From: a virus
Length of the DNA: 64,000 bases
IMG/VR virus record: IMGVR_UViG_3300047552_000910
Location: 1 to 64,000 of that record
Reading direction: 5' to 3' (one strand)
The first letter of the stretch is position 1. The number at the start of each line of letters is the position of its first letter. Position numbers and translations under genes: made by a program. Below the pieces are notes generated by a model. The model was not told the origin of the DNA. It did not search any database and saw only the letters and a list, made by a program, of their open reading frames with translations. This document shows positions 1 through 64,000 of the stretch, in pieces.

Positions 1-3
1 GAT

Positions 4-12000: not shown

Positions 12001-13689
12001 TTACCTAACGAAGCTAGCATGATTGTAAGAGTAGACCAAGAAATAATAAGTGCCCCTAAAAACGAATATTTTAAGATTAAAAGTAATAAGTTATATTATG
12101 CATTAGATTATTTGCAAATCCCGTATAATTCAATAACGGAAGACGATATATTAGTTCGTATAGAAGAATTTACATTGGTAAATGGTGTTGATTATACAGT
12201 AGACTTAGCAATAAATACTATTAAGATATCGTTTGATATAGCGAATAATTATGCAGGACAGGTATTATCTATTATTGTAAATTACGGCGCATCTTATACT
12301 TACACTCCTAGAAATAATGATAATCCTCCAAGAATACAATTTAATAAAGTTTACACGGCAGATAATTTTATTAGTGTAACTAGTTCATTTAAACACGATA
12401 TTTTAAATATTCAAAGAACTGAAATTAGTGCGACGCCCGTTAGTCCAGATTCAACGTTGTATTATAATTATACCAATTTGCATAGCGGGTTAATTTCGTT
12501 AGAACGTGCCGTGTTAAACGAAAACTTCGTATGGGTTATGAAAAACGGTAAATTGTTATCGCCCGTTATTGATTATAAATTAGTAAATGATAGGAAAGGC
12601 ATACAATTATACAGCGCATCAACTGACGAGGATAGATTTACAGTAATGACATACGACAGTAATTTATCGTATTCTGGAATTGCATATATGCAATTTAAAG
12701 ATATGTTGAATAGGATGCATTTTAAACGATTAAGTCTTTATAAGCAAACTCGATTAATTAAAGATTTGCTAGTGGATGATAAGTTTATTGAAGTAGAAGA
12801 CGCTCGCACGTTTAATTTGCCCGATAAAAAACGAAATCGTCCGGGTGTTGTTGAAATACACGGGGAACGAATTGAGTATTTTACAATTAATGGAAATGTG
12901 TTAAGCAGATTACGTAGAGGAACGTTAGGAACTGGCGTGCCCGCTATACATTCGGCAGGCACATTTGTACAAGATATTGGAGTTAGCGAAACAATTCCTT
13001 ATAATGATACAGTATTAGTTGATCGTATGGTATATCAAGATTCAAATACTATTATGTTAGATAAGACGCAAGCTGTCGGCAATACAGCAATGTCTACTGC
13101 TTGGAATTGGAAAAATAAGGAAGTTGGAGAAGGTTTAGCTTTAGAACAATATAACGAGTTAGCTAAAAATTCTTTAGAAATATTAATTGGCGGGTATCAG
13201 ATAGAAAAAAGATGGGGACCCGGTATAGTTTATAAAAAAGATGAAATACTTATAGTCGGCGAGTACACTTATAAGGTGTTAAAAACCCACATTAGCGGAT
13301 CGACGTTTGATGATTTAGTGATTACGTTGATAGAAGTTGACAACACATTGCATGAAGATCAAGTAAATGTTGATAGTAGTACAGTGTATGAGTTCATCAT
13401 GGGGAATATAAAATTACGTAAAGATGATTATTATATGTTTAACTCAAACATTGCTCCGACTAGTCCGGAGGGAGATATTAAGTTTGAAAGAGATTTTATA
13501 ATATCTGCATTAACTGGCGAATATAGTTCGATAGAATTAAATCAACCGTTATTACCTGGAACACAAGTTAATATATTTAAGAAAACCGGAGTAAATTGGG
13601 ATAGTTTTGTGAACATTGAAAATGACACAGGAGAAATTGCAGACTTCTTAAAAGCTGTGCCAGGAGCATTACCAAGTGCAAGCAGATAA
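4..13689 (+). CDS. Giant virion structural protein (baseplate/tail-associated), 5'-truncated by the window edge
   Basis: 4561-aa ORF open from the window start. FG-GAP-like beta-propeller repeats (FGSSLVF..LFVGAP, FGRGVAI, LLVGAP), CBM5/12-like W...G.IV.Y...YY.A motifs, G.GY repeats, four ~70-aa repeats. Lies upstream of tail-fibre genes. Confidence 0.75.
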   Translation: MYRVRVDGAVTSEGTISNPLDTSNWEFYASSLLTVNNFDLDIFDDKDAAADLDNENLRVYVNSKKLNKADWQLEDGPYYKKIVLKKSELDDDSYTSVNYNDVVSIKVFSESPINDNGYYEIPINLQQNPLNETIDGFTFGEVFDHVGSIIDSLPTLQSDIPVELNRLVFKQESIGYNNLRDMGAVSKYGTKFVQHSGPLSLSLYHITSSENNIIRAIEQSRDDYSKFKKAFIIVAETLGVDTDVFTHVNLILEEVNRNKSSSFPYYLSDMIPYNNFKRNDFVVIDNRIKAYPLDNVFTLTSLSNKAVGVYLNSIQLLYGKDYTFDEQGFVVISAKINDNDVISVYEYDSTDGCFIPETPAKLGLLPKYEPMLYLDTTLVTPRMMIQGHDGSQILAYNDYRDQLVLELEKRIYNNIKSQYDPAVFNIYDFIPGYSRICSYSLTEFNQILAPTFYEWTSLINRDFSKPLTFDESNPFTSNYAAIDGRQVPGYWRGIYKWMFDTDRPHLCPWEMVGYSTEPVWWEDVYGVAPFSSLNMIMWTDISNGLVSDPRNAVKVYDANFKRPFLLTHLPVNVAGELLDPASIGVVVGSNNLNNRNGYVFGDGGPVESAWRKSSHYPFNLIIAAMLMHPAKTFGLLLDRARIKRNLTNQLIYTETGVRITPADIIMPSVFFSSSRIQTSGIINYLVSYIIQDKLKTLDSYVYDLSYMKSQLSYRLGGFTSAEKFNLLLDNKSPASSASSVFVPKEDYIIFLNTSSPLKKVVYSGVIVTKTTEGFEVKGYSKSHPYFNYYQWSGAGKNVNVGGISESYMQWTADKLYTIGKIVQYSDRFYRASITHTSSASFDFEYFKLLSALPIIGGKEANFRKSWDRSVVQVLPYGTILRDIQDVVDLLLGYGEWLKDQGFIFDDYNQEINQITNWETSAKEFLFWTTQNWSTGKDKWANWLPSNEIAAESIVKYNGDYYKAIRPSINIIPDSTEGLYYFSKLDGLSSVGSSVISMSPLANKITFISELSVVDDITNQFNEYEIVSVDGKPIQPSYITSFREDNRVSYISTDTNGIYGASFYLIQKEHVVVLNNNTIFNDLIYNSSSGYKQDRIKVSGYVISNWNGSFNCPGFIFDRAKIVDWAQWVDYALGDIVKYKEFYYSANTSLSGTEEFNAISWTKLDNAPVSKLLPNWSYKAAQFNDFYNLDSDNFDVVQQQLGQHTVGYQKRQYLENIIQDDVSEFKFYQGMILEKGTQNVFNKLFDVLSADDQESVDFYEEWALRVGRYGASPAYESIEFILDEVLFKNNPQGYELVETLDNTPVDYIIRQRPQDVYLKPMGYNSAPWPLSNHYKQFLKSPGHVVEADVKVVLPSLDHIIDKNDTGESLYPIEGFVEGDYVWCTFDPPQWNVYKYTNSNIQILNITPNSNSCTLLLNDVDSFLIGSYIGITNISKGAGFYKIIGKGEYTIDISAKAGIFPQPFDEIETTLLYELAGQQVQRFDDLADNKAAANIFAKNLKPNDLMWVDYNGDTTLWATWKYVPVYIPKLISSPTLDSNSLYGRAIAVNKAGRVCAVAEVNRNRTVTMFTRSNIDRYWTPAYSINMVTGTEIVIFQDSQGVLRPSEVATELALSDDGVWLAVGSPAVTRVLVTNNVLLRMSASGGQLALSTGIVSLYKKEPNTNRYIHNCTFASRNCDLDKSRNESFGSSLVFSENALFVGAPGYNSNKGIVYKLIYNSGSDFWSYGQEADDINPETITDIGNTVSFGSSVVFNNDYSILLISSTGNTTVPGTVSVFYKDGSSYDLATVINESHTPTSSFGRGVAISSNNEIAISAQLETTERKNRGIVYTYSLKNNAGVTTFSKIQSIESPYLGYNLFGSKLAFIKDSVSDYYLQTYQVEKYDDTLMIYNSDEGYDNWNYDIPRYDSEGAKIGEGLVLAYNRYFNKWVLSEAIGRYEDNVFSTAYGTGFAASNTCLLVGAPYYNYVWPYTNQSFRTGQVFEYQNLQSKRSWTVRDLEDSNIDVFKIKRAFLYNKKTSELVTYLDVLDSTQGKIAGVADQEIKYKTFFDPAIYSNLTDPVDGLSESKVIGINVVNIDNGTSWTKEQVGLLWWDLKTSKFNVVSNRDTNYRNTMQNRLAVGASVDIYEWVESSYKPSEWDKLATSTQGYSLGISGTSLYGDLVYSIAKRYDSVTKIPKNVYYFWVKNKTTASLAQNRSLSANDVANLISNPRGAGYKFIAFTSPSSFSLVNVGSLLNEENVVLSVEYWITDQITQNIHSHWELISENKDAVLPLIIEEKWFDSLCGRDKNDLLVPDYSLSPKLLYGVENRPRQGMFINRIEIVKQLVEYINKVLKTNRITDQKSLSKLNSFERAPGLRSGKYDLVVESMVSLDELSDIDVSEFKVPELQVRAVDGKIDSVQVITAGNGYAAINPYEKDLTGAVVSWYGPKFIITGDGKDADVVSIINSNGAIIGYKVINGGAGYNTVNSRCTIRSYSVLVQLDSTASDAWSIYEYNVEFNKWNKAASQSYDTRRYWNTIDWYDTGYTQFSVPDYIINTYLELTDPRYNVGDLIKITGSENWVLLEKFANSNNTDISLQYRIVGQQNGTIQFLSSLYDYNSNIGYDGTLYDNIGYDNISSIELRYILESLRDDILIDELRIEYINLFFVCLRYALSEHHYLDWAFKTSLVKANHNVGGFNQRLTYKNDNLSNFEDYISEVKPYRTKIREYISNYTKLENVDLAVTDFDLPPVYVDNKSIPVTLMLPEEENKWLDDNLVLSSYPWKYWYNNYKLGINTVDVLASGHSYTSSSTSISVAGLCDRPAKLKAIISTGEILLITVTNSGAGYKTAFVNIIDTVGTGATANVILVNGAVSDIVVTNSGTRYSTNTTIEIIGQCTIPASANLLVSNGNLVGVEILDPGMGYTTIPEIGIASSTGVGGAITCTIGSVVRTSLIKMKFDRITTNASVINPIKTEVFDLPSYVDGERTVFELKMSPSMKLGDTVVSVKQGGDVSVVELSSDDYSVFKTRILGDTHYQNTGLVILDVAPTVGSVVTISYHIDQEAFNAADRINHLYLPAINHKGQHLSQLMSGVDYGGVVIDGTSFHVDNGWNSTSYYSSNWDVFDPVFSDYTVTVSADTHELTLPYIPSATDIINVYHLKNYASSVLSDGTALSYNFNPAVYRIAVSTEYAIVTDIDISAGQRLLPCGIASTGIAGFTDLGNKIGVNSVANIHVGDYIKFTNNVFGGITPHQYYYVIEVFEPVSQITIGTIKGDVDSIINLTAANGSMTFDVVPSINRANINVGDTVEFPVITGAGLSTDLENKIVVNSVIGISAGAIIRFIKDVFGGVVLNQYYYVLEVLPLLNQITIGTIESDQDSIIQLTAGTGNMLFEIGSYAGKEPTGFAITTSKASNKITLEDSYANQLVAGDLIRFGGNTFGGLTEGQYYIKEVFNTTNQITLTLDMQVNEVVKLKNGSGLMQYIVGKEFDNVLVDRIIPEGIVINRMLTRTLPAGSAITFRKTLSHPADMIMSTEGEILLSNPVASGSIINLRGVIDSVRLDHANFGKTWTIISSSATSNELETVEDISFNVNDQIIFNGTVFGNVLVDTRYYVSQIVTNNTFKISTLRNGVVFNLETNTGSMTASQVLKPEIVMESWKGDGINNIVDIPITVLVEDGDQFVLRKENSDGSINTPSSAYDTTLSGGDVAYTTATGVNPDDIIIDGEELISPVNCPALEELIPGQMFDAVAIKVFNRPNTGAANINVENYISDGKDTVYGIGQTPNSPNAVIVTVTNTLYVARLNTFDILPIIGDYLYKSVIDIDGDASVVLLGTVNEVDDVLFTVTYTPTNLISLFNTDVVQVQDTVLGVVIDVDHISNSTIKTEGVDYRVDKETVLFTQPVAENNIISIFSIGINGGIYSIQNQYATGVSEKFSVDYPYSITSYIKPLVYVNFMLMIEGVDYVVTSRSNNILGINFSTIPAAGQLVSVMLADNSLQTFAITKTEKIIGDGRSRPYNLAYNVGDLLPNEASMIVRVDQEIISAPKNEYFKIKSNKLYYALDYLQIPYNSITEDDILVRIEEFTLVNGVDYTVDLAINTIKISFDIANNYAGQVLSIIVNYGASYTYTPRNNDNPPRIQFNKVYTADNFISVTSSFKHDILNIQRTEISATPVSPDSTLYYNYTNLHSGLISLERAVLNENFVWVMKNGKLLSPVIDYKLVNDRKGIQLYSASTDEDRFTVMTYDSNLSYSGIAYMQFKDMLNRMHFKRLSLYKQTRLIKDLLVDDKFIEVEDARTFNLPDKKRNRPGVVEIHGERIEYFTINGNVLSRLRRGTLGTGVPAIHSAGTFVQDIGVSETIPYNDTVLVDRMVYQDSNTIMLDKTQAVGNTAMSTAWNWKNKEVGEGLALEQYNELAKNSLEILIGGYQIEKRWGPGIVYKKDEILIVGEYTYKVLKTHISGSTFDDLVITLIEVDNTLHEDQVNVDSSTVYEFIMGNIKLRKDDYYMFNSNIAPTSPEGDIKFERDFIISALTGEYSSIELNQPLLPGTQVNIFKKTGVNWDSFVNIENDTGEIADFLKAVPGALPSASR

Positions 13690-13819: not shown

Positions 13820-14422
13820 ATGAAAGATACAACAGAATTATCCATATATGGATTTTTAAAAATATACGACCCAGCATCAAACGATATATTTTTTGACGGG
13901 CATAATGCTATCCATTATGAAAACATGTCGCAATCATTAGCAGCTAGTATAATTGGAACAGGCGCAGGGGTTATAAAGCACATGGCGTTTGGTAACGGCG
14001 GAACTGCCATAGATCCAACTGGTATTATTACTTACTTGTCTCCTAATAATGTTGGAACTAATGCGAGTTTATATAATCAAACATACCTTAAAACAATTAA
14101 TCAGTATGATAATGGGAATATAGATCCTACGAAAAATTACCTCCAATTTAGGCATGTTACGGGCGCGAACTATTCGGATGTTTTTATTACTTGTTTATTG
14201 GATTACGGCGAACCACCAGACCAAGCAGCATTTGATAATGACACAAATGATTCAGTTTATATATTTGATGAACTCGGGCTAGTATCGTATAGTGCAAATA
14301 TGAATGATCAGTTATTATTGTCGCATGTTGTATTCCATCCTGTGCAAAAAGCATTAAATCGATTAATTCAAATAGATTATACTATACGCATTCAAAGTTT
14401 AACTGGATTAGTTGGAGTGTAA
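13820..14422 (+). CDS. Conserved virion structural protein (tail/baseplate module)
   Basis: 200-aa ORF between the giant protein and the fibres. MAFGNGG, FDELGL and FHPVQK..RLIQIDY motifs resemble baseplate/tail-collar proteins. Confidence 0.6.
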   Translation: MKDTTELSIYGFLKIYDPASNDIFFDGHNAIHYENMSQSLAASIIGTGAGVIKHMAFGNGGTAIDPTGIITYLSPNNVGTNASLYNQTYLKTINQYDNGNIDPTKNYLQFRHVTGANYSDVFITCLLDYGEPPDQAAFDNDTNDSVYIFDELGLVSYSANMNDQLLLSHVVFHPVQKALNRLIQIDYTIRIQSLTGLVGV

Positions 14423-14425
14423 TTA

Positions 14426-15976
14426 ATGTCTTATTTAATACGATATTCCAACCCAAATAAAATTATAGTAGTACAAGATAATGCACTTAATTCAGAAACT
14501 AGTATTTCTTTTGTAGGTAAAGATTATACTAATTATGCGCCTGTTATTGCAGAAAGTTTTTTACATTTGTTAGAAAACTTTGCTAATGTAACACAACCAA
14601 TTAATCCGTTGCCTGGGCAGTTATGGTTTAACACCAGAGATAATTCTCTTTCGGTATTTAATAAAGCATTAAATTGGAAAAGTATTGGTTTAATTACGAC
14701 AGGCGGATTTATACCTACCAATCCAGTAGCTGGAGAATTGTGGGCCGATACTGTAAATAATCAAGTAAAATTATATACAGGTACCGAATGGATTGGTGTT
14801 GGACCAAACCCGTCTGGCCCCGTAAAATCTGGTGCGTATGTAGAAACTATTATAGACACTGCTAGTGTTTCACATGTTGTAATTTTATTATATTCCCGAG
14901 ATGTTATCCTAGCAATAATTAGCGGAGACGTTGCATTCTCGCCTAACGAAGAACGCAGCGGATTTCCTGTAATTTACCCTGGAATAAATTTATCAACCAC
15001 TATTAATGATATAAAATTTTATGGAACTGCAAGTAGTGCGAGTTCTCTTTCTATAAATAACGGCGAACAAATTGTATCCGCAGATAAATTTGTTCGCACT
15101 GATATTTCAAATATTCTTAACTCTTTGTTGCAAATTCAAAATAATGGCGGAGTTTTAGTAGGCCAGCGATTAGATTTTGGTATGCAAGTGATAGACGATA
15201 TTCCGACAATAATAAGCGGGTTACCTGGGTCTGGCGGCGATAACAGTTATAAAGATATTAATATAGATTTATATCCGCAAACCGGTACAAAACAAACAGT
15301 AGTAAAAATTAAATCTGACGGCAAAGTGGTTATCGGAGTTGATTCTGCTGAAGGTAGAGGACGTGATACTTTGCATATTAATGGTAATGTTTATATTGCA
15401 GGAGCATTAACATCTTCTGGTAAAATTGTTGCGAATTCACCAACAACTGAACAGATTTCAACGGAAGTCGAACTTAATTCATCGGGGTATGATATTGGTT
15501 ACGGTATTGATTCTGGTTGTCTATTAGAAGGTGTGTGGGTTGGTTCCAGTGATAGTGTTAAGGCACCGGTATCAGTTAATAAATATGATAGTAATTTTAC
15601 CGCAGCATCTTCGTATACAACTATGACGATTACAGCGGACGGCCAATACGAGATAATTGAGTTTATGACTACTGCAGACGGTAGTTCAATGAAAGAAATA
15701 ACCCATTCTGGCCATATTAATAAAATACGAGATCAGTGCTATTTTAGAGTAGGCGACGGCTCTAACGGTTTAGAGTTGACTCCTATTATTGTTAATCAAT
15801 CTTATGATTCACTAAATATGATTTATATTGGTCCGTCAGTGGGGCAGAGATTGCCAGTTATTGAGCGTCCGTGGAAAACATATTCGTATTATCGGGTATC
15901 TTATGAAACTGATACTGCCGGCGATATAATTACTAGATTATTATCAATAGCAAGACAATGGCCGCATTTACCGTAA
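14426..15976 (+). CDS. Tail fibre/baseplate-associated protein
   Basis: N-terminal GK.Y..Y......F..LLENFA...P..P..GQLW module shared with the next ORF; P..GELW repeat. Confidence 0.7.
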   Translation: MSYLIRYSNPNKIIVVQDNALNSETSISFVGKDYTNYAPVIAESFLHLLENFANVTQPINPLPGQLWFNTRDNSLSVFNKALNWKSIGLITTGGFIPTNPVAGELWADTVNNQVKLYTGTEWIGVGPNPSGPVKSGAYVETIIDTASVSHVVILLYSRDVILAIISGDVAFSPNEERSGFPVIYPGINLSTTINDIKFYGTASSASSLSINNGEQIVSADKFVRTDISNILNSLLQIQNNGGVLVGQRLDFGMQVIDDIPTIISGLPGSGGDNSYKDINIDLYPQTGTKQTVVKIKSDGKVVIGVDSAEGRGRDTLHINGNVYIAGALTSSGKIVANSPTTEQISTEVELNSSGYDIGYGIDSGCLLEGVWVGSSDSVKAPVSVNKYDSNFTAASSYTTMTITADGQYEIIEFMTTADGSSMKEITHSGHINKIRDQCYFRVGDGSNGLELTPIIVNQSYDSLNMIYIGPSVGQRLPVIERPWKTYSYYRVSYETDTAGDIITRLLSIARQWPHLP

Positions 15977-15991
15977 AAAAGGAAATTTAGA

Positions 15992-18574
15992 ATGTCATAT
16001 ACAATTAACAGATTTAACGGGGCAGAACTTACGGTAGTAACTGATGCCACAGTTGACGAAACACTCAATATTAAGTTAATAGGAAAGAACTATGCTGGGT
16101 ATGGAGAAATGCAAAATGAAAATTTTGTATACTTGCTAGAAAATTTTGCAGGCAAATCCCAGCCATCTAGGCCGTTATCAGGGCAGCTTTGGTACGACAC
16201 AGATAATAATAGGCTTAAATTCTATGATGTATCTTCTCAGTTTAGAAGTTTAGCAGGAATTAATGTACAAGCAGGGTCACCAACTGGTGCAGGGTCGTCT
16301 GTCGGCGAATTTTGGTATGATTCTACCAACAGTCAGCTTCATGCATGGAACGGTAGTAAGTATACTTTAATCGGACCACAAGGCGACGACGTGGGCGGTA
16401 CAGTTATTCGGGCCAGATTAGTGTATGCTCTTGCCGGAGGTCCGTATTATGTATTAGAAGCAACAGTTGACAGTAAATCTGTATTTTTAGTGAGTAACCA
16501 CGGGGCATTTACTTTAGTTCCTGCATCGGACACCAAAAACACGGGATTGGGCGAGTATAATAATTCTATAATACGGCCAGGCATTAATTTAGCAGGAACA
16601 AATTCTCTCGGAGTTACTGACTCTTCTTATAATTGGCGATTTAGCGGAACAGCAACCGATTCTGAACGGCTTGGTGGATATTTGTCGTCTAATTTGCCGG
16701 TCGTTGATACGGTGGTTTTAAGAAACGATGCAGGCGCTATTACTGCAACTAACGGTATTTTTTCAGGTACTTATATAAAGTTGCCTACTGGTACTCCAAC
16801 TAATCCAGAAGGCGGGATGTTACGCTATAATAGCGGGCAGTTCCTTGGGTTTAACGGGACTGATTGGCTCGATTTAGGCGAAATCGGACAACAAGGTACA
16901 TTTTCACTAGTGGGCGGCGGAGGTTCAAGCCCTTCTATAACATTATCGGGCGGGTCCGGCAACCCTATAACATTTGCTGTTGACACTGGCAGTAGTGTAA
17001 CACTATCTCAATCAGGTAACCTTATTACGATCGGCGGTGGCGGCGGGTCGGGCGGTGCGTATTCTTTAGCAATAAGTAATGCATCAGGATCATCTGCTCA
17101 GTTGTTATTGATGAACGGGAGTTCTATTGCAACAACAATACAGTTAAGCGGCACTAATATTACATTCGGCGGGTCCGGCACAGATCTTCAAATTATTGGC
17201 GACCCAGGCCAAGGCGGTGGCTCTGTGACAGGAGTATCCACTAATATTCCTGGGTTAATTTTTAATACACCCGGTACAACACCATTGTTAACACTTAATT
17301 TGGCTGCTCCGCCGGCAGAGTGGGGTACCCTTCCTTACCTCGATGGTACTCCAGCGGGTGTATATATTTCTGGAAATTCTACTGCAGGTAGTGTTGGTAT
17401 TGGTTTTCGAAATTCTCGATCTGGGGGTGGTACTGGATATATTGGAGTGGGTTCGGGGTTAGGGTTGAATTCGACAACAGTGGTGTTAACTGCGCGCAGT
17501 GTGACACCTGTCGTGGGTAGTTCTGATTACTCAACAGTATTTCGAGTAAATTCAACCACAGCTAATCTTGGTACGTTGTTTAGCGGCATTGCAGTTAGTA
17601 AAGTGGTAAATTATTCTGAATTGTTTACCAACAGGCCGAACGACCCGTCAAATACCGGAACCGGCTTGCTTATCACACACAATTCTAGTGGTACAACTCC
17701 TTTTAAGGGGTATATTGGGTGTACTGCTTCGGCTCTACAACTAGTTTCGCCATCTATGTCAGCTAATGTGTCAACAGCCAACGGCGCCCTCGGCTTTAAA
17801 CTTTTTATAAACTCAGCTACTAAATTTGTATTCGATGACAAAGGAATACATCACGGATCAGCGGAAGGCGATGAGTATCAAGTAACCTTTAATTCCGCGA
17901 TAAACACTGGCTCTAATAATAATACTGTACGCGGAATACTAATACAAGGAAATTCTGCAGTAAGCGGAACTGATTCTGCTAGAGATAATTTCGGGGGCAT
18001 TATATTCGGGAATCAAAAATTTACCAACTCAGATCCAACCACGTATGGTTTTATTGGGTGTACCGCGGCCGCGACGTCAATAATATCAGATAAGAAGGTA
18101 AACATTGCATCGGGCAATGGCTCTGATGTCGCAGTCGCCACGACTACGCGGTTATCAGTTACTACAGCAGGAATTGTAGTAACAGGCACAATTAACGGAC
18201 AAACCATCGGCTCAGATATTAGGTTAAAAGACGTAACCGGCAAAATACAAAACCCACTAGAAAAAATTAGTCAATTAACTGGTTATCATTTTAAATTTAA
18301 TAAATTAGGGTTAGAATACGGATTACCGGAAGGTCCACAACTAGGGTTAACTGCTCAAGATGTAAAAGCAATACTGCCGGAATTAGTTGTTAATTTACAT
18401 CTTAAGAACAACGAGTTTGATAATAGTAAAGTCGAAGATCCGTACTTAGGCGTTTTGTACGATAAATTAGTTCCGTTATTGGTAGAAGGAATTAAAGAAC
18501 AAACAAACACGATTAATTCACTTACAGATCGTGTTACACAGTTAGAACAACTTGTTAAAAAATTGGTTGCGTAA
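15992..18574 (+). CDS. Tail fibre with C-terminal intramolecular chaperone (peptidase S74 type)
   Basis: Gly/Ser-rich body. C-terminal SDIRLK...L.G..F.F...G..AQDV...LPELV...Y.KLVPLLVE.IKE followed by a coiled coil. Confidence 0.85.
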   Translation: MSYTINRFNGAELTVVTDATVDETLNIKLIGKNYAGYGEMQNENFVYLLENFAGKSQPSRPLSGQLWYDTDNNRLKFYDVSSQFRSLAGINVQAGSPTGAGSSVGEFWYDSTNSQLHAWNGSKYTLIGPQGDDVGGTVIRARLVYALAGGPYYVLEATVDSKSVFLVSNHGAFTLVPASDTKNTGLGEYNNSIIRPGINLAGTNSLGVTDSSYNWRFSGTATDSERLGGYLSSNLPVVDTVVLRNDAGAITATNGIFSGTYIKLPTGTPTNPEGGMLRYNSGQFLGFNGTDWLDLGEIGQQGTFSLVGGGGSSPSITLSGGSGNPITFAVDTGSSVTLSQSGNLITIGGGGGSGGAYSLAISNASGSSAQLLLMNGSSIATTIQLSGTNITFGGSGTDLQIIGDPGQGGGSVTGVSTNIPGLIFNTPGTTPLLTLNLAAPPAEWGTLPYLDGTPAGVYISGNSTAGSVGIGFRNSRSGGGTGYIGVGSGLGLNSTTVVLTARSVTPVVGSSDYSTVFRVNSTTANLGTLFSGIAVSKVVNYSELFTNRPNDPSNTGTGLLITHNSSGTTPFKGYIGCTASALQLVSPSMSANVSTANGALGFKLFINSATKFVFDDKGIHHGSAEGDEYQVTFNSAINTGSNNNTVRGILIQGNSAVSGTDSARDNFGGIIFGNQKFTNSDPTTYGFIGCTAAATSIISDKKVNIASGNGSDVAVATTTRLSVTTAGIVVTGTINGQTIGSDIRLKDVTGKIQNPLEKISQLTGYHFKFNKLGLEYGLPEGPQLGLTAQDVKAILPELVVNLHLKNNEFDNSKVEDPYLGVLYDKLVPLLVEGIKEQTNTINSLTDRVTQLEQLVKKLVA

Positions 18575-31472: not shown

Positions 31473-31724
31473 TTACGCAGATTGCGTGGGCTTTACTGCG
31501 GGTCTTGAGTTATGTTGCTTACGCGGGTACGTTCGTTTGACGCCTGTGCTTTTTTCGTATGCTCGCCAAATATAACTTTCTCGATTGTACAAGTCTGCAG
31601 GGTTAAACGGCATCCAGTTTAATCGACAAAAATCTAGGAATACTTCGAGATCATCAAAAATCTTAGTAATTTCAGGATGATTATTAAAGTAGGTGTGTTC
31701 GTACTTCTTATATTTCTTTGCCAT
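31473..31724 (-). CDS. Hypothetical basic protein
   Basis: 83-aa ORF, IFDDLE.FLDFCR...FNPADLY motif. Confidence 0.65.
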   Translation of the reverse strand: MAKKYKKYEHTYFNNHPEITKIFDDLEVFLDFCRLNWMPFNPADLYNRESYIWRAYEKSTGVKRTYPRKQHNSRPAVKPTQSA

Positions 31725-31926
31725 GGTATTATAGAATTAAAGTTAAGGGTTAAAAGGTATAATTAAAAACAATCAATTAATCGTATTCAATGATGCATCC
31801 GCATTCTCCGTTACTTATATATCGGTTGTTATTTTAACTTAATTTATTATACACGCCTTCTACTAAAGTTTCTATACTATATCGCGTGTTTCGGTTTTTA
31901 CCGTTTAACAAAAGTTAATAGGCTGG

Positions 31927-31995
31927 TAAATAAGCGTGCCGATCACAATACTAGTCATATTCATCGGCGCTAACGATTATAAAGGAATCATCAGC
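31927..31995. ncRNA. Structured leader/antisense element of the HNH endonuclease gene
   Basis: TAAATA-N5-GCCGAT-CAC-AATA-loop-TATT-C-ATCGGC-GCTAACGATT-loop-AATCATCAGC-ATG; same architecture as 63705-63770. Confidence 0.65.
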
Positions 31996-32700
31996 ATGAA
32001 TATATATCTTCAGGAGCTAGATAGCTTCGTTATCCCCAATAAATATACCAAATGGTATAATTCTCTTATTGAAAAGGCAGCAAACAGATTTAATATTGAT
32101 CCTAGTATTCAAATAATTCAAAACCGCCGACGTGCTAAAAAACAATTCGGTTATATTGAAGGTCATCATATTATTCCTCGCTCAATCAAACCAGAACTCT
32201 CAATTAATCATTTTAACATTGTTTATTTGACAGCCAAGGAGCATTTTATTGCTCACTTATTATTAACAAAAATGTTTCTAGGAAAAGAGAAACAAAAAAT
32301 GATTTTTGCTTTTCGAAGAATGCAACACCATAATAACGGAAAGCGATATACAAGTAAAGTATTTAGTAATTTTAAATTGCAAATGCCTCCTACTAATCTA
32401 GGTAAAATACAAATTACTGACGGTATTAACACGCGTCTTCATTTAAAATTTGAACCAATGCCCGGCGGGTGGACAAAAGGCGCCGGCTTGCTTTATAAAA
32501 ATGCCCGCAAAATAACTAATATAAATCTGCATTGTAATACCTATGAAGTATTTAATATTATTAATCAGGATAGATTTTTAGTTACAAATTTAAAAGAATG
32601 GGCCGTGACCGTAAATATTCCTTATTACACATTAGCTAGTGCGTGTCGCTTAAATAATGTTGTAAGAAAAACTTTTATTATAAATAAAATTAAAACTTAA
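31996..32700 (+). mobile_element. Free-standing HNH homing endonuclease, antisense to the flanking operon
   Basis: EGHHIIPRS...NIVYLTAKEHFIAHLLL. Real start ATG 31996 (MNIY) after an AAAGGA RBS. Confidence 0.88.
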
Positions 32701-33058
32701 TTAGCGCGCCATTTTCATTATCTTCAGAGACTTCGATCTCTATTTCCCGATCGGGGTATTTTTTAGAAATTTGTTCGTGCAAATCTTCCGCAATCATTTC
32801 GCAAGATTTATAGTCTAATTGTAATGTTTTTTGTGTATAAAGGTTTTCAAGCCACCGCTTTAATTGAATAAACTCAATTGAACGATTTGAATGTTCTACA
32901 GATATCCACACTTTAAAATGAAAAATGTGGCGGTGCGGATAACCTAAAAATCTAACGTCATATTCATCATCAGTTGATAATAATGAATCGGTTAACGCCT
33001 CAGGATACTTGTGTATGCCCTCTTTTTGAAATGTTACCCATATCCACTTTTTACTCAT
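32690..33058 (-). CDS. QueD-like T-fold protein, DpdL-like (candidate CDG decarboxylase)
   Basis: EGIHKYP, LGYPHRHIF (LxxxHRHxF instead of QueD CxxxHGH), SCEMIA, VSEDNENG. Confidence 0.7.
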   Translation of the reverse strand: MSKKWIWVTFQKEGIHKYPEALTDSLLSTDDEYDVRFLGYPHRHIFHFKVWISVEHSNRSIEFIQLKRWLENLYTQKTLQLDYKSCEMIAEDLHEQISKKYPDREIEIEVSEDNENGALIKF

Positions 33059-33060
33059 AA

Positions 33061-33450
33061 TTAACTCCAATATACTTTTTTAATGCCTACTGCGTCTATA
33101 AACGCTTGGCAAGAACTGCACGGCTTCGACAAGCCGATATTTCCAGACCTCGATACTTTAATAACATACAACGAACATTTCTTAAGTACTTCGTAATTAT
33201 ATCTATTTATTGCTTTAATAATAGCATCTTTCTCTGCATGAAGATAATCAGCACCTAAACATCGTTGATATTTCTTTTCAATGGGATGAGTTTTTTGATT
33301 CGAATGTCCAATTGATAGTACAGTTTTTTTGTATACTACGGCAGCAACATGTTTTCCACCTTTTACGTATCTGTTATTATTTACGGAATTGATCATCAAT
33401 AATTCAAAGATTTTGTCATTTTGGTGTGTGGGTGCAGAGTTCCAAATCAT
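33061..33450 (-). CDS. Zn-dependent deaminase (CDA/dCMP deaminase superfamily)
   Basis: HAE...KPCSSC motifs. Confidence 0.85.
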   Translation of the reverse strand: MIWNSAPTHQNDKIFELLMINSVNNNRYVKGGKHVAAVVYKKTVLSIGHSNQKTHPIEKKYQRCLGADYLHAEKDAIIKAINRYNYEVLKKCSLYVIKVSRSGNIGLSKPCSSCQAFIDAVGIKKVYWS

Positions 33451-43204: not shown

Positions 43205-43462
43205 TCAGATTCGTTTAGTAATATCTAGTATAGCTTCAATTTCCTCCCAATCTGAATTATGAGAATCCCAATCACCTTTATGTGCTATTCTAATAGCCTT
43301 ATTAATAATTGACGGTTTAATTTGGAGTTCTTCAGCCACTGCTTTTACAGTATCTCTAAGTCCGTCTTGAAGATCTTGCACTTCTCTTAGAACAGTAGAG
43401 CCCTCAGTAATTAGTCTTTCTAACTTCTTTTTTTCTTCTTCGCCATAAGCACGACTAGTCAT
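43205..43462 (-). CDS. T4 DsbA-like dsDNA-binding protein
   Basis: 85 aa; L..LI.EG.......L.D......EEL.....INK.I...HK.D pattern of T4 DsbA. Confidence 0.65.
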   Translation of the reverse strand: MTSRAYGEEEKKKLERLITEGSTVLREVQDLQDGLRDTVKAVAEELQIKPSIINKAIRIAHKGDWDSHNSDWEEIEAILDITKRI

Positions 43463-43565
43463 CGTTTACTGTCTCCTAAATGAATATTTTAAGGCATAAC
43501 AACTGTTATGTCTATTTATTGTTTGTTTTTGTAGGAAGTAACCCGTTTAAACAGGTTATATTTGA

Positions 43566-49364: not shown

Positions 49365-50009
49365 TTAGTTGATAATAGTATTGATTTTTTTAATAGACTC
49401 GCCTAGTTGTAATTTTACCAATAAAAGTGTTTTTTCGTCTGAAACATAAAAGTATTTGCCATAAGTCAAATGCGGGTAATTTAATTGAAGAATGCTGCTT
49501 TCGGTCATTCTAATATTTTTATTATTCTTAGCCCAGTTAACAAATGTTTCGTTATTTGATTTCAAAGATTTCAAAGTTACTTTATAACCGAATGGTACAT
49601 TTGGCATTCTAATGGTGTCGGGCGATAGTGTTATTCCGTCTTCTGGTTTATGTATTTCTCTTACTCGATTTTTACACAAATCCATTAATTCTAAAATATC
49701 ATCGTATGAATTAGTATAAACCGACACATATCGTTCAACCCGCAAATCTATATCTTTAAATCCTTTCAAACAACGGAGGAATTTTAATGCAAATTCTTTA
49801 TCAGCTGCGGTATTAATATGATTATATTTCCAAATACTTAATTGGAGCGGCTTAGGATTGTATACGGTGGTGGCTAATAACCGTTCTATTGAATCGAAAT
49901 CTGGCTTTTTGTTAACCTTTGAACGAAATATTCTAGAGCCAGGACAATCGATTACAATTTTAAATTGATATTGATTCTTGTACAGTCGTCTCATCGGAAA
50001 AAATTTCAT
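49365..50009 (-). CDS. Hypothetical protein
   Basis: 214-aa ORF. Confidence 0.65.
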   Translation of the reverse strand: MKFFPMRRLYKNQYQFKIVIDCPGSRIFRSKVNKKPDFDSIERLLATTVYNPKPLQLSIWKYNHINTAADKEFALKFLRCLKGFKDIDLRVERYVSVYTNSYDDILELMDLCKNRVREIHKPEDGITLSPDTIRMPNVPFGYKVTLKSLKSNNETFVNWAKNNKNIRMTESSILQLNYPHLTYGKYFYVSDEKTLLLVKLQLGESIKKINTIIN

Positions 50010-52263
50010 GTGGTACCTTATTAAGTTGTGGTTTAATTCTTTTAGCCTTTCCGACTAATATTAGTTTATTGTTAGATGCATCGGTAGTAATATTCAACAC
50101 CCCTCCATTTTTAAGATTGCCGTAGAGGAGCATTTTAGCCAATTCACGCTTAATTTCCTTGTCAATAACGCGGCCCAACGGCCTTGCTCCCATTTTAGGA
50201 TCAAATCCTTTTTCTAAAAGCCAGTTAGTTGCTTCGTTGGTAAGTTTGATAGTAACACCTTTACTCTTTACTTGCCCTCTTAGTTCATTAATAAATTTTT
50301 CAGTAATAAGTTTCATTGTATCAACATCGAGCTTGTTAAACTGAATAATGCCGTCTAATCTATTTCTAAACTCTGGCGGGAAAAATTGTTTTAATTCAGT
50401 ATCTTCGTAAGTAGCTTCGAAGTTAGTAAATCCGATATGATTCTTTTCAGAAGCTTGCGCGCCTGCATTAGTTGTAAGAATAATAATAAGATTTCGGCAA
50501 TCTGCTTTCTTGCCATTCGATCCAGTGATTGACCCAGTATCCATCATTTGCAGCAAAATGGTTGATACATCCGGATGACTTTTTTCAATTTCGTCTAGTA
50601 GCAAAACTGCATTAGGATGTTCTTGAATTTGTGTAATCAGTACTCCGGCATTATCATCGAATCCAATATATCCGGGCGGACTACCTAATAATTTACTAAT
50701 ACTGTGTTTTTCTTGGTATTCCGACATATCTAACCTAATTAGTTCGACGCCAAGATGTTTAGCTAATGTTTTTGCAAGGATTGACTTTCCAGTACCTGTT
50801 TGGCCGGAAAATACAAAACTACCAACTGGTTTATGTTCTGGTTTTAATCCTGCTTGTGATATAGTAATAATGTTAACCAATTCGTCGATAGCAGTTGCTT
50901 GTCCGAATACTTCCGATTCTAACTTCTCCTTCAATGTTTCAATTTTATTATCTTGAGTCTCCATAATTTGCTCTTTGGGCAAATTGACCATTTTTGACAG
51001 TTCGTATTGGATATCTTCTTCTTCTATCACACGATGTTCTGTTGTTTTTAAATTAAACCTAGAACATGCGCAATCGATTAAATCGATTGCTTTATCGGGT
51101 AATTTTTTATCAGCTTGATACTTTACAGAAAGATCGATTGCTGCTTGCAGTGCAGCAACTTTAATTTTAACTTTATGAAATTGTTCGTAGTACTTCTTAA
51201 TACCTTTAAGTATTTCCAATGTCATTTCGGGGGACGGTTCATTTATTGTAACACGCTGGAATCTCCGCATTAATGCACGGTCTTTTTCGAAGTGTTTACG
51301 ATATTCTTCCCATGTAGTAGACGCGATTACTTTGATATTGCCTTTACTCAATGCAGGCTTCATCATATTCGCTAGGTCGTTTGATGAGTTGCTGCCCGCA
51401 CCTGCTCCGCTCATCATATGAGCTTCGTCTATTGCTAATATCGTTTTCCCTTGCTTTTGTAATGCAGCCAATACCGCTTTAAATCGTTCTTCAAATTCAC
51501 CTCGGTATTTGGATCCTGCTAATAATGCAGATATATCTAAATTGTATACAGTATAATTTGTTAAAAATTCAGGTACCAGTTTATTAACAATATTATAAGC
51601 AAGCCCTTCTAAAATTGAAGATTTGCCTGTACCTGGGTCGCCAACTAAAATAATAGAATTTTTAGTTCGTCTGCCCATAACTAATGCCACAGCAGTGAGT
51701 TCTTCTTCTCTGCCAATAACAGGATCAATTTTTTTGTCTTTAGCTAATTGGTTTAAGTTTGTAGTAAACGCCATTAATGCTTTTGAACTTCGGGCATCTA
51801 CTTGGTTATTATCAGTATCGCCCGTATCATTATTTGTAATACCTTCAATATAATCGTTAAATTTTGCCTTATCGATATTTGCGGGAGAGATATAATAATG
51901 AGCCCAAGTTTTTGTTTCGCTCATGATAGACAATAATACATCCAATGTTTCAATTTCTTGTCGGCCATTGAATAGTACTCGAGTAAATGCTCGATTTAGT
52001 ACCCTAGCAACTGCTTGGGTTTTTTTAGGCTTAACTACTTCGGTTACTGTGATTTCACTACATTGCGTTTTTAAATAATTAAGTACCGTGTCACTTAATT
52101 CTTGGGGATTTATTCCAAATTCTTGTACAGAGTCAATCACAGTTGACTCTGTTAATGATGCAAATAACAAATGTTCTACGGTAACATATTCATGATGTAA
52201 GTTTTGTGCAGTATCGATTGCTTTATCAAAAACTGCCTGTACATTTTCACTGAGTTTAACCAT
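49960..52263 (-). CDS. clpA: ClpA-like AAA+ unfoldase
   Basis: Clp N-domain (HEYVTVEHLL), DPVIGR, two Walker sets, DMSEY, GSPPGYIG, IGF loop, GARPL; no ClpB M-domain. Confidence 0.93.
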   Translation of the reverse strand: MVKLSENVQAVFDKAIDTAQNLHHEYVTVEHLLFASLTESTVIDSVQEFGINPQELSDTVLNYLKTQCSEITVTEVVKPKKTQAVARVLNRAFTRVLFNGRQEIETLDVLLSIMSETKTWAHYYISPANIDKAKFNDYIEGITNNDTGDTDNNQVDARSSKALMAFTTNLNQLAKDKKIDPVIGREEELTAVALVMGRRTKNSIILVGDPGTGKSSILEGLAYNIVNKLVPEFLTNYTVYNLDISALLAGSKYRGEFEERFKAVLAALQKQGKTILAIDEAHMMSGAGAGSNSSNDLANMMKPALSKGNIKVIASTTWEEYRKHFEKDRALMRRFQRVTINEPSPEMTLEILKGIKKYYEQFHKVKIKVAALQAAIDLSVKYQADKKLPDKAIDLIDCACSRFNLKTTEHRVIEEEDIQYELSKMVNLPKEQIMETQDNKIETLKEKLESEVFGQATAIDELVNIITISQAGLKPEHKPVGSFVFSGQTGTGKSILAKTLAKHLGVELIRLDMSEYQEKHSISKLLGSPPGYIGFDDNAGVLITQIQEHPNAVLLLDEIEKSHPDVSTILLQMMDTGSITGSNGKKADCRNLIIILTTNAGAQASEKNHIGFTNFEATYEDTELKQFFPPEFRNRLDGIIQFNKLDVDTMKLITEKFINELRGQVKSKGVTIKLTNEATNWLLEKGFDPKMGARPLGRVIDKEIKRELAKMLLYGNLKNGGVLNITTDASNNKLILVGKAKRIKPQLNKVPHEIFSDETTVQESISI

Positions 52264-62936: not shown

Positions 62937-63101
62937 TTAATTTGACCAGTGTTGAATAATTCCGGCAATAATAGTCAAGTTAGTAATTAAATATATTAGA
63001 ATTATCATAGTTCGGACGATAGCAATTTTATCGGCTTCGGCATCATCCGAACTTGCTTTTTCACCAAGGGACTTGGCCCATATTCTCCAAATTTGTTTCA
63101 T
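62937..63101 (-). CDS. Unannotated 54-aa small membrane protein
   Basis: MKQIWRIWAKSLGEKASSDDAEADKIAIVRTMIILIYLITNLTIIAGIIQHWSN; ATGA overlap with the queD stop. Confidence 0.8.
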   Translation of the reverse strand: MKQIWRIWAKSLGEKASSDDAEADKIAIVRTMIILIYLITNLTIIAGIIQHWSN

Positions 63102-63649
63102 TCGCCTGTATATTTACAATGCGATTTTGCAGTTTCCCACAATTCTACTGATACAACAGTAGCAAAGTCTTTAATTTGCGATTGCACATATTGTTTAATA
63201 TGTTTACAAATATTTTCAGAAGTAGGAACAAAATCAACCAATACAAACGAATCAACAAATTCATCCATTAGCGTATCTGCATCTAACGGTAATGCTCCGG
63301 AGCACAACTCTCCGAGATTTGTAAAATTTAACAACGGACCAGGAGCCCATTTCATCCCTGTAATTGTACGGAATAACGGATCGTTAACATCGATCATAAA
63401 CTTATGATCTAGTACTTCGTCGACAAACTTTTTTACGAAGTTTAAGTTCTTAAAATCTGTAACCATTCCAGACTGATCTAATTTATCCGATCCAAGATGC
63501 ACTTTAATCGTATAGCTGTGGCCGTGAAGATGTTTGCATTTTGTGTACGTATCGATACTAAGCTCTGGATTATTTAGTTGTTGTGCCCAAACACGATGCC
63601 CCATTTCAAAATTAAAACTTTTTGATATTGTCCACTTATAGTCGTTCAT
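63098..63649 (-). CDS. queD: 6-carboxytetrahydropterin synthase
   Basis: F..GHR, CKHLHGH, GMV.DF, LDH, PTSEN, ET.KS. Confidence 0.93.
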   Translation of the reverse strand: MNDYKWTISKSFNFEMGHRVWAQQLNNPELSIDTYTKCKHLHGHSYTIKVHLGSDKLDQSGMVTDFKNLNFVKKFVDEVLDHKFMIDVNDPLFRTITGMKWAPGPLLNFTNLGELCSGALPLDADTLMDEFVDSFVLVDFVPTSENICKHIKQYVQSQIKDFATVVSVELWETAKSHCKYTGE

Positions 63650-63699: not shown

Positions 63700-63704
63700 A
63701 TTTA

Positions 63705-63770
63705 TAAATAATGGTGTAGTTCGCGGAACACCCATTCCCAACTACCCTAACAATATGGAGCATTGCCAGC
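63705..63770. ncRNA. Structured leader/antisense element of the GIY-YIG endonuclease gene
   Basis: TAAATA-N5-GTAGTT-CGC-GGAA-loop-TTCC-C-AACTAC-C-CTAACAAT-loop-ATTGCCAG-C-ATG. Confidence 0.65.
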
Positions 63771-64000
63771 ATGAATATTTATTATGTTTACGCATATTTA
63801 CGAAACAAATCTTCCCAAATAGCAGAAATTGGAACGCCTTATTACATCGGCAAAGGTAAAAATAATAGAGCGTATCAGAAACACCGAACTGGTTCACGCG
63901 GCATTTCGCTTCCTTTAGACAAATCTAATATTGTAATATTAGAAAGAAATTTAACCGAAGTTGGTGCACTTGCATTAGAGCGCAGAATGATAAGATGGTA
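63771..64000 (+). mobile_element. GIY-YIG homing endonuclease, 3'-truncated by the window edge (not in the ORF track)
   Basis: MNIYYVYAYLR...PYYIGKGKNNRA...E..ALALE..MI. Confidence 0.85.

Follow-up and report, generated by a model that had tools for sequence, protein, structure and literature searches.

A portable two-hairpin cassette at the start of homing endonuclease genes in uncultured T4-related phages, with a fold selected on the strand opposite the gene

The cassette at two nuclease genes of a giant phage

The window analyzed here is the whole stretch of 64,000 nucleotides at positions 1 to 64,000 of the IMG/VR virus record IMGVR_UViG_3300047552_000910, and it carries two nuclease genes on the plus strand, both of which start with the residues MNIY. 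The first is an HNH-type homing endonuclease gene of 234 aa (31996..32700), whose product matched the homing endonuclease family phrog_655 (9.6e-27) and the HNH family phrog_12434 (8.8e-12) in PHROG. In its alignment H57, H58, H83 and H87 are invariant, and its profile gave weak matches in PDB (E 0.06-0.6), nearly all of which were HNH domains. The second is a GIY-YIG-type homing endonuclease gene of 220 aa (63771..64000, extending past the window to position 64433 of the record), which matched homing endonuclease PHROGs and whose subfamily profile reached the solved domain of the PDB GIY-YIG entry 9u75 (E 1e-4). The residues invariant in its subfamily alignment (Y5, Y7, Y9, Y24-Y25-I26-G27, R33, E70 and N89) make up the GIY...YIG...R...E...N pattern of the catalytic core. 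Pfam searches with the single sequences of these two ORFs reached no family.

Both nuclease genes of this giant phage start with the same cassette of about 85 bp, whose family consensus opens with an ATAAATA box, continues with two hairpins and closes with ATG-NNT-ATT-TAT. The elements follow one another in the same order in both copies: TAAATA, a 5-nt spacer, a 6-bp stem, a CRC/C interior, a 4-bp stem, one linker base, and a second hairpin that begins with CTAAC and holds the Shine-Dalgarno sequence in a 7-nt loop, followed by CAGC and ATG AAT AT. The positions re-measured by us agree throughout with those given for this two-hairpin anatomy in the original prediction, which had been made from the letters of the window. 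None of 100 shuffles contained the pattern CTAAC-N12-22-CAGCATGAATAT, which the window has twice, and the likeness of the two copies is far beyond chance. A possible third copy at 43505 was discarded, because the covariance model described below did not score it as a cassette.

In copy 1, the sense box is GTAAATA at 31926..31932 on the plus strand (TAAATA at 31927-31932), a variant of the consensus that we read as a putative T4-type late-promoter box. Hairpin 1, assigned to the minus strand, occupies 31938..31968; its 6-bp outer stem is formed by GCCGAT (31938-31943) and ATCGGC (31963-31968), its interior sets CAC (31944-31946) against C (31962) in plus-strand letters, leaving an R:Y pair between two bulged bases, and its inner stem is the 4-bp AATA/TATT. 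Hairpin 2 (31970..31994, minus strand) is a 9-position hairpin that begins with CTAAC at 31970-31974 and closes on the 7-nt loop ATAAAGG, the ribosome-binding site of the nuclease gene. Its pairing is complete, including two G·U pairs, on the minus strand only, where the loop is complementary to the Shine-Dalgarno sequence; its energy is -5.6 kcal/mol on this strand versus -0.4 kcal/mol on the plus strand. CAGC and the ATG at 31996 are followed by AAT ATA TAT, so codons 2-4 contain the inverted box ATATATA (32001..32007, minus strand), a variant of ATAAATA and a candidate promoter for an antisense RNA. The predicted antisense RNA of about 65-70 nt, for which both ends are likewise predicted, would span 31927..31995 on the minus strand.

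Copy 2 has the sense box TATAAATA at 63703..63710 on the plus strand. Its hairpin 1 (63716..63745, minus strand) has the outer stem GTAGTT (63716-63721) and AACTAC (63740-63745), CGC versus C in the interior, and the inner stem GGAA/TTCC. Hairpin 2 (63747..63769, minus strand) begins with CTAAC at 63747-63751 and has the loop ATGGAGC, so that the anti-Shine-Dalgarno sequence again stands in the minus-strand loop; its energies are -5.6 and -1.0 kcal/mol on the minus and plus strands, respectively. The ATG at 63771, preceded by CAGC, continues with AAT ATT TAT and contains the inverted box ATAAATA (63776..63782, minus strand). The predicted antisense RNA, about 66 nt long with both ends predicted, would span 63705..63770 on the minus strand. 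The whole folds of copies 1 and 2 amount to -20.8 and -17.6 kcal/mol on the minus strand, and to -12.0 and -13.3 kcal/mol on the plus strand. The early observation that two A·C mismatches in hairpin 2 of both copies turn into G·U pairs on the opposite strand was borne out. On the minus strand, the covariance model gave 67.4 bits for copy 1 and 85.6 bits for copy 2, both of which were among the 69 sequences that built it.

Size and distribution of the family

We scanned IMG/VR with the pattern TAAATA-N34-48-CTAAC-N12-24-CAGCATG and found at least 119 matching loci, including at least about 100 unique homologues with the full anatomy among the matches listed. The pattern permits 64-90 nt, and the matched lengths cluster at 66-72 nt among the IMG/VR matches listed. 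When a stem filter was applied, 15 matches in 14 loci failed; three of them appear by inspection to be true copies and the rest are without stems. A covariance model, R1, was built on the antisense strand from 69 sequences, and it recovers further cassettes outside the scan pattern. Over 846 kb of loci this model gave 107 hits, all of them on the antisense strand and none within those false pattern loci that were searched, so that the check for strand bias proposed at the outset gave hits on one strand only. In total, the cassette is common to well over a hundred such nuclease genes in uncultured T4-related phages.

The number of cassettes found by R1 varies widely among genomes. The complete 360-kb genome G001 has 13, and the genome fragments G003 (142 kb), G006 (95 kb) and G004 (139 kb) have 12, 6 and 5, respectively, while three were found in G002 (161 kb, 96% complete), two in the complete 372-kb genome G007, and two in the 99 kb examined of the record to which the window belongs. 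The only cultured phage concerned is the Rhizobium phage RHph_I1_18 (171 kb), whose one diverged copy, at 80288-80374 of MN988519, was the sole true copy obtained by BLAST of named phages; a hit in the Citrobacter phage Merlin falls within ordinary genes and was rejected as a chance match. Megablast of the region against phage records matched nothing. The DNA polymerase of the window shares 65% identity with its counterpart in G007 and 56% with the one in G001, and its nearest named relatives are the PA5oct-like jumbo phages (43%). On the basis of these identities, we consider the phage of the window to be a member of a group of T4-related phages of about 360 kb.

The module had not been recognized as a named family at first sight, and the Rfam check agrees with this view: the window had no hit at the gathering threshold, and four cassette loci searched with E up to 1 gave nothing relevant. 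A full-text search of the literature found no account of the cassette. The text of a catalogue published in 2023, which covers over ten thousand candidate phage RNAs (PMC10690425), is without mention of it, and the catalogue itself may contain it.

Association with homing endonucleases and portability

In 84 of 87 complete contexts, the cassette stands at the head of an ORF that measures 90 aa or more; two others are solo cassettes. Among the 86 downstream ORFs that were scanned, 53 matched phrog_314 and 25 phrog_655, both of which are annotated as homing endonuclease. The Pfam domains found downstream include NUMOD3, GIY-YIG, SegE, HNH, HNH_3, HNH_5, the I-TevI DNA-binding domain and a Vsr-like domain, as well as others. 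A lack of linkage to endonuclease genes had been named beforehand as a point that would speak against the element; the link proved strong, with homing endonuclease PHROGs dominating.

The cassette is also portable between nuclease genes of different folds, as had been supposed from the two copies of the window. When we took pairs of cassettes at least 88% identical to each other, 54 of 73 pairs headed ORFs without detectable similarity past the first six residues. Cassette identity was 70.6% within a genome and 67.0% between genomes, a slight difference. One locus (L030) differs from two others (L033 and L117) with 98-99% identity by a single nuclease ORF body of about 650 bp, and the latter two retain the cassette, followed by a 4-codon remnant of the nuclease ORF. 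A similar comparison with empty sites gave no result for copy 2, since synteny was not conserved among relatives of the PTPS/QueD-like gene near it. We found no conserved sequence flanking the cassette, either ahead of the outer box or past TATTTAT, and none at the 3' ends of the ORFs.

Covariation and the strand of the selected fold

The stem sequences of the two copies in the window differ while their pairing is kept, and this characteristic of a covarying module extends to the family. In the antisense alignment of 69 sequences (A3), standard pairs occupy 97.5% of cells; the corresponding values for controls were 31-47% when partners were slid by 1-3 columns and 77% in shuffles. Double-sided changes were found in 14 of 19 pairs, including all 11 of hairpin 1. 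RNAalifold applied to the sense alignment gave the same hairpin 1, with compensatory changes in 10 of 10 pairs. The further homologues with covariation that the original prediction expected are therefore present, at least about 100 of them, and every pair of hairpin 1 shows compensatory changes.

To which strand the selected fold belongs was examined by counting pair types at positions defined by the anatomy, without a folding program. On the gene strand, the cells of stem 1 are Watson-Crick in 586 cases, A·C or C·A in 19, A·A in one and G·T in none. The CRC interior sets its middle base against the single base on the 3' side, and the two form G-C in 65 copies, A-T in 14, A·C in 22 and G·T in none. 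At the fixed positions of hairpin 1, therefore, 41 A·C and no G·T on the gene strand correspond to 41 G·U wobbles when the opposite strand is read. Two positions of hairpin 2 that are free to vary, beside the fixed CTAAC/CAG, hold only T or C and only A or G, and these transitions always preserve the antisense pair. The mean energy of this hairpin is -6.0 kcal/mol for antisense and -2.0 kcal/mol for sense, with the antisense form being the more stable in 96 of 101 copies, and its length varies from 22 to 25 nt. Its third pair is an invariant G·U. In unbiased hits of the model, GTTAG alternates with ATTAG while the partner is constantly U, so that U·G alternates with U-A.

On the basis of this asymmetry of pair types and of the energies and transitions of hairpin 2, we conclude that the selected fold is that of the strand opposite the nuclease gene, as had been suspected from the mismatches in the two copies. 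The sense-strand hairpin 1 is still stable (mean -9.3 kcal/mol). G·T is also tolerated in single-stranded DNA, and the strand asymmetry by itself is therefore no proof of RNA.

Inverted boxes as candidate late promoters

The outer box of the cassette is [A/C/G]TAAATA, and the cassette ends in TATTTAT, seven bases that read ATAAATA on the other strand; two inverted ATAAATA boxes thus face each other about 70 bp apart. From the outer box the distance to hairpin 1 is 3-5 nt and that to hairpin 2 about 45 nt, both hairpins being downstream of it. Codon 2 is NNT and specifies N, T, S, I, D, Y, V, C, F, P, R or G, with a third base that is nearly always T. Because the residue varies while the third base is fixed, the inner box must be conserved at the nucleotide level, and this explains why unrelated nucleases all start with MxIY. 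In 30 unbiased hits of the model, the inner box was kept in 27 and the outer box in all 30. We saw no covariation between the outer and inner boxes, both of which are near-invariant. A helix joining them was rejected for this reason and survives solely within one of the alternatives discussed later, a leader on the nuclease mRNA.

Both boxes resemble T4-type late promoters, and we infer that they may be recognized as such by a gp55-like sigma factor. The cassette-bearing genome G002 has TATAAATA or ATAAATA 12-57 nt upstream of genes for tail sheath, tail tube, scaffold and head-tail adaptor, and it has a gp55 homologue (44% identity across the aligned part). Genes similar to gp55 are present also in the complete genomes G001 and G007 and in the Rhizobium phage RHph_I1_18; no gp55 was found in the 99 kb of the window's genome, which is estimated to be 28% complete. 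In the window's genome ATAAATA occurs 28 times, versus 49-117 times for the 20 other 7-mers of the same composition, and this approximately threefold depletion is as expected for a signal that is avoided where it is unwanted. The 8-mer TATAAATA showed no enrichment in the window's genome or in G001. Both boxes of copy 1 are variants (GTAAATA and ATATATA), which we count against the promoter reading. Neither sigma-70-like promoter nor terminator-like matches were found at either cassette of the window.

At T4 late promoters, transcription begins about 6 nt past the box. By this rule, the predicted antisense start falls at the base of the hairpin with the anti-Shine-Dalgarno loop, and the predicted sense start falls at or inside the 5' arm of hairpin 1, because the spacer there is 3 or 5 nt.

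Proposed antisense control of the nuclease

Among the three mechanisms offered at first (an antisense antidote, a processing signal and a ribozyme-like element), the antisense antidote fits best. We favor, at somewhat better than even chances, the explanation that the cassette is a cis-antisense control module in which a folded antisense RNA restrains the nuclease. The upstream box would be the promoter of the nuclease mRNA. Transcription from the inverted box would begin beside the start codon and proceed back across the leader, giving a short antisense RNA. This RNA would present first the hairpin with the Shine-Dalgarno complement in its loop and then the bulged stem with two invariant bulged G, and it would be fully complementary to the ribosome-binding site and the start codon of its own nuclease mRNA. 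Translation would be blocked by the RNA-RNA pairing, perhaps with cleavage as a further result, and promoter interference from convergent transcription would come on top. The existence of this RNA, its ends, its repression of the nuclease and the promoter activity of the boxes are what we infer from the cassette, and the module may in this way license toxic nucleases, as first suggested. The geometry is consistent with this explanation: hairpin 2 carries the complement of AGGAG in its loop, and the antisense fold begins beside CAT in the predicted RNA.

The orientation of neighboring genes gives a clue to how such an RNA could be produced. In the window, both nuclease genes have minus-strand ORFs on either side, and the initial remark that these genes oppose local transcription is correct here; in the family it does not hold as a rule and is merely a bias, because among 77 contexts 43 are antiparallel, 17 co-oriented and 17 mixed. 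In all of the 17 co-oriented copies, the antisense fold is the more stable, and antisense G·U are at least as numerous there as elsewhere. Selection on the fold is thus independent of the orientation of neighboring genes. Since the antisense fold has not decayed in co-oriented contexts, the predicted antisense RNA would need a promoter of its own, and the inverted box fits this role; we rely on this argument most for a dedicated antisense transcript. The antiparallel bias also means that read-through transcripts in most loci likewise carry the fold, which counts against a dedicated RNA.

Concerning the end of the transcript, the second antisense hairpin is followed by AC, a short pyrimidine-rich spacer and then UAUUUAU. 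An intrinsic terminator found no support: the consensus scan was negative, and a d'Aubenton-Carafa-type discriminant was negative in 101 of 101 copies. In view of this lack of a canonical terminator score, the predicted antisense transcript may be longer than stated above.

Several other ideas were examined and set aside. The ribozyme reading received no support in this analysis; CUGAUGA on the antisense strand of copy 1 is hammerhead-like, but it is not conserved (the family consensus is CUGRY) and the GAAA core is absent. A small antisense ORF starting from the palindromic CATG stops after 6 codons in copy 1, and its frame is broken in the family because of the aforementioned variation in the length of hairpin 2. 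Loop-loop kissing between hairpins 1 and 2 was inconsistent across copies.

Alternative explanations

The alternative that survives best, to which we assign a minor chance, is that the cassette serves the phage's own transcripts, as an outward promoter with a structured leader or as a processing or stabilizing element, so that the fold would matter on transcripts oriented like the neighboring genes. It would then restore or insulate expression of the gene beside the insertion, and repression of the nuclease would be secondary or absent. The excess of contexts antiparallel to both neighbors (43 of 77, versus 17 co-oriented) is in keeping with such a function, and at copy 2 the antisense transcript would enter the PTPS/QueD-like gene at its ribosome-binding site, about 55 nt off, read-on being plausible because the hairpin is not a canonical terminator. 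The two loci that keep the cassette after loss of the nuclease ORF (L033 and L117) agree with it, and promoters of neighboring genes located within T4 nuclease genes (seg and mob) are known (Edgell et al. 2010, PMC2988022). However, the 17 co-oriented contexts, in which the transcript would be antisense to the upstream gene, show no lesser conservation of the fold and boxes, and about 200 nt separate copy 1 from the next minus-strand gene, which has a sigma-70-like promoter match of its own. This explanation also leaves unaccounted for why the loop of hairpin 2 and the start of the RNA are placed exactly over the ribosome-binding site and start codon of the nuclease.

We regard as improbable a second alternative, in which the cassette acts in cis as a leader on the nuclease mRNA, in the style of the translational masks of T-even phages. 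In a read-through mRNA, ATAAATA would pair with TATTTAT in codons 2-4, and the resulting three-way junction would hide the start region, while late transcripts, which start past the box, would escape masking. This logic is documented for I-TevI, I-TevII, I-TevIII, segB and mobE (PMC2988022), and both the exact reverse complementarity of the boxes and the stability of the sense hairpin 1 (the aforementioned -9.3 kcal/mol) are in accordance with it. The fixed positions of the sense strand nevertheless hold 41 A·C mismatches and no G·U, the sense hairpin 2 is weak (-2.0 kcal/mol) and has the Shine-Dalgarno sequence in its loop rather than its stem, and the upstream variants CTAAATA and GTAAATA are uncompensated downstream. 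Furthermore, most copies are without a co-oriented upstream gene as a source of read-through.

A single-stranded DNA structure of the bottom strand, used in replication, recombination or homing with no role as RNA, appears very unlikely: it is compatible with the strand asymmetry, G·T being tolerated in DNA hairpins, and single strands are exposed both in T4-type replication and in homing, but hairpin 2 has an invariant G·U as its third pair and wobble is frequent at defined positions, both being traits typical of RNA, the register of the element is fixed to the ribosome-binding site, the start codon and the promoter-like boxes, and we know of no DNA signal of such a kind for homing of GIY-YIG or HNH nucleases.

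Comparison with known systems

For the antisense control module favored here, the closest analogue in logic would be RNA-IN/RNA-OUT of IS10/Tn10, by which the transposase is under cis-antisense control (Simons and Kleckner 1983; Ellis et al. 2015, PMC5006887). As in IS10, the 5' end of the gene of a selfish element would be under a short and stably folded antisense RNA, the antisense promoter (here a box, if it acts as such) faces the promoter of the gene itself, the overlap would span the ribosome-binding site and the start codon, and repression in trans is possible when many copies are present. The cassette differs from IS10 in being unrelated in sequence and in Rfam, in having two hairpins instead of one, in having phage late-type boxes instead of sigma-70 promoters, and in serving the homing endonucleases of lytic phages, with many different ORFs under one cassette.

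Known controls of T4-type nuclease genes are sense hairpins that sequester the ribosome-binding site and contain an internal late promoter, autorepression, and promoter choice (Edgell, Gibb and Belfort 2010, PMC2988022); that source brings up antisense transcripts solely as something that insertion might cause incidentally. The cassette shares with the masks of I-TevI, I-TevII, I-TevIII, segB and Aeh1 mobE the T4-type homing endonuclease gene, a box of the TATAAATA type immediately upstream, an RNA structure at the translation start and a presumed late timing. In contrast to these masks, the ribosome-binding site stands in the loop of a weak sense hairpin and not in a stable sense stem, the putative late promoter lies outside the hairpins, its box being 3-5 nt upstream of hairpin 1, and there is selection on the antisense strand together with a second, inverted box within the ORF.

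Another known group is formed by PeSL and PmSL, which are promoter-stem-loop cassettes of T4-like phages (Arbiol 2010, PMC2839356; Comeau 2014, PMC4122927). They resemble the present cassette as short conserved regulatory units that are repeated in T4-type genomes at gene-swap boundaries. PeSLs, however, consist of a sigma-70 (-35/N17/-10) or Mot-box promoter and one terminator-like stem-loop and flank ORFans, and they are without inverted late boxes, a two-hairpin core or a tie to nucleases. An antisense RNA that overlaps a homing endonuclease gene of a T4-like phage is reportedly known from the cyanophage S-PM2; this RNA, CfrI, which Millard and colleagues are said to have described in 2010, reportedly measures about 225 nt and connects psbA with the nuclease gene in a single transcript. 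CfrI is not known to be a conserved, portable and structured cassette at the 5' end of genes. Cis-antisense regulation of a selfish gene is thus a known kind of control that has apparently not been described for homing endonucleases.

Significance for phage biology

The cassette is a real and widespread structured element, whose strand-specific selection and portability are demonstrated by the family as a whole, and its function as an antisense repressor is plausible. A broader view, that it represents a new family of small antisense RNAs that put a universal safety catch on the homing endonucleases of T4-related phages, is more doubtful, and we offer it tentatively. If this view were true, the two bulged G and the pair that is always G·U would be a site for a dedicated protein of the phage or host, and copies in one genome would repress each other in trans through the shared core (multicopy inhibition). 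The cassette would in addition serve as a landing pad, with nuclease ORFs exchanged behind it.

Large lytic phages have homing endonucleases as their main mobile genes, and the tolerance of dozens of them by one phage is only partly understood; the controls known so far, i.e., sense hairpins, autorepression and promoter choice, span a handful of T-even genes. The antisense idea can be tested directly, because the cultured Rhizobium phage RHph_I1_18 carries a copy of the cassette. The face-to-face design of the presumed promoters and the apparent junction for ORF exchange bear on the shuffling of phage genes. If the idea is true, the cassette would define a new structured RNA family of phages and a ready marker for such genes in metagenomes, and a portable antisense-RNA module placed on hundreds of unrelated nuclease genes would be a new general layer of their control.

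Sequence Features Within the Cassette

In both cassettes of the window (copy 1 at 31926–32007 and copy 2 at 63703–63782), the start codon of the nuclease gene lies in the palindrome CATG, which therefore gives an ATG at the same place on the antisense strand, and in copy 2 this antisense ATG opens a frame of 33 codons. A conserved antisense frame starting from CATG was considered and could be ruled out, because the length of hairpin 2 differs by 1–3 nt across the family and the frame is consequently not maintained.

Across the family (loci L008–L126), the loop sequences of hairpin 1 include reverse-complement pairs: TGGGGA (n = 7) and TCCCCA (n = 3), TTGCCG and CGGCAA (n = 6 each), TTGGCG (n = 6) and CGCCAA (n = 4), and TTGCAG (n = 5) and CTGCAA (n = 3). 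To judge from these sequences, it looks as if small inversions had flipped the inner hairpin.

ATAAATA Boxes Outside the Cassettes

Throughout the whole viral record (G000), comprising positions 1–64000 of the window and 35 kb beyond it, ATAAATA is depleted approximately threefold: it occurs 28 times, and the remaining 20 7-mers made up of five A and two T occur 49–117 times apiece. Several of its intergenic copies are located directly upstream of ORFs, e.g., at 13686, 40792 (−), 43513 (−), and 87391. The intergenic stretch at 43463–43565, which reads ...CTGTTATGTCTATTTATTGT, has a cassette-like start (ATG-TCT-ATT-TAT), but the ORF that follows comprises only eight codons; this stretch is without hairpins and was not called as a cassette by the antisense-strand covariance model. 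The ATAAATA box in this stretch, read on the minus strand, precedes an ORF of 86 aa (43205–43462) by 50 nt, and it may represent either a simple late promoter or what is left of a cassette. A perfect TATAAATA was also found at 32679–32686 (+), i.e., at the extreme 3′ end of the HNH ORF (31996–32700) headed by copy 1; it is directed into the convergent minus-strand gene 32690–33070, which overlaps the HNH ORF by 11 nt. Such a 3′ box is not general across the cassette family.

Neighboring Genes in the Window

In the interval separating copy 1 from the minus-strand gene that comes next (31473–31724), we found a sigma-70-like promoter match (TAGAAA-17-TATAAT, 10/12) at 31846–31874 (−), so that this gene may have a promoter of its own. 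The plus strand of 1–13689 is occupied by one ORF, which is cut off by the 5′ boundary of the window and encodes 4562 aa or more; an ATAAATA box is present just beyond its stop, with a one-base overlap, and tail-fiber-like genes (13820–18574) come after this ORF. The minus strand carries genes for a Lon-like ATP-dependent protease (49960–52263; phrog_4871, 2.4e-238), a collagen-repeat tail fiber protein (61349–62839), and a 6-pyruvoyl-tetrahydropterin synthase (63098–63649), the last of which is QueD-like and hints at 7-deazaguanine DNA modification.

Cassettes in Other Phage Genomes

In the T4-like genome G002, a cassette (G002:C1:89938–90021) and its nuclease gene adjoin the late sigma factor gene, a gp55 homolog at 89055–89411.

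What sets phage genome L030 apart from the near-identical genomes L033 and L117 (98–99% identity) is the body of a single nuclease ORF (L030:3811–4458 vs L033:3332–3337). Both L033 and L117 have kept the cassette, which is followed by a mini-ORF of four codons (ATG TCT ACG ATT TAA) in place of the nuclease ORF, and another solo cassette, with an ORF of eight codons, was found in L096. These cases suggest that a resident cassette stays in place while the ORFs behind it get lost or swapped.
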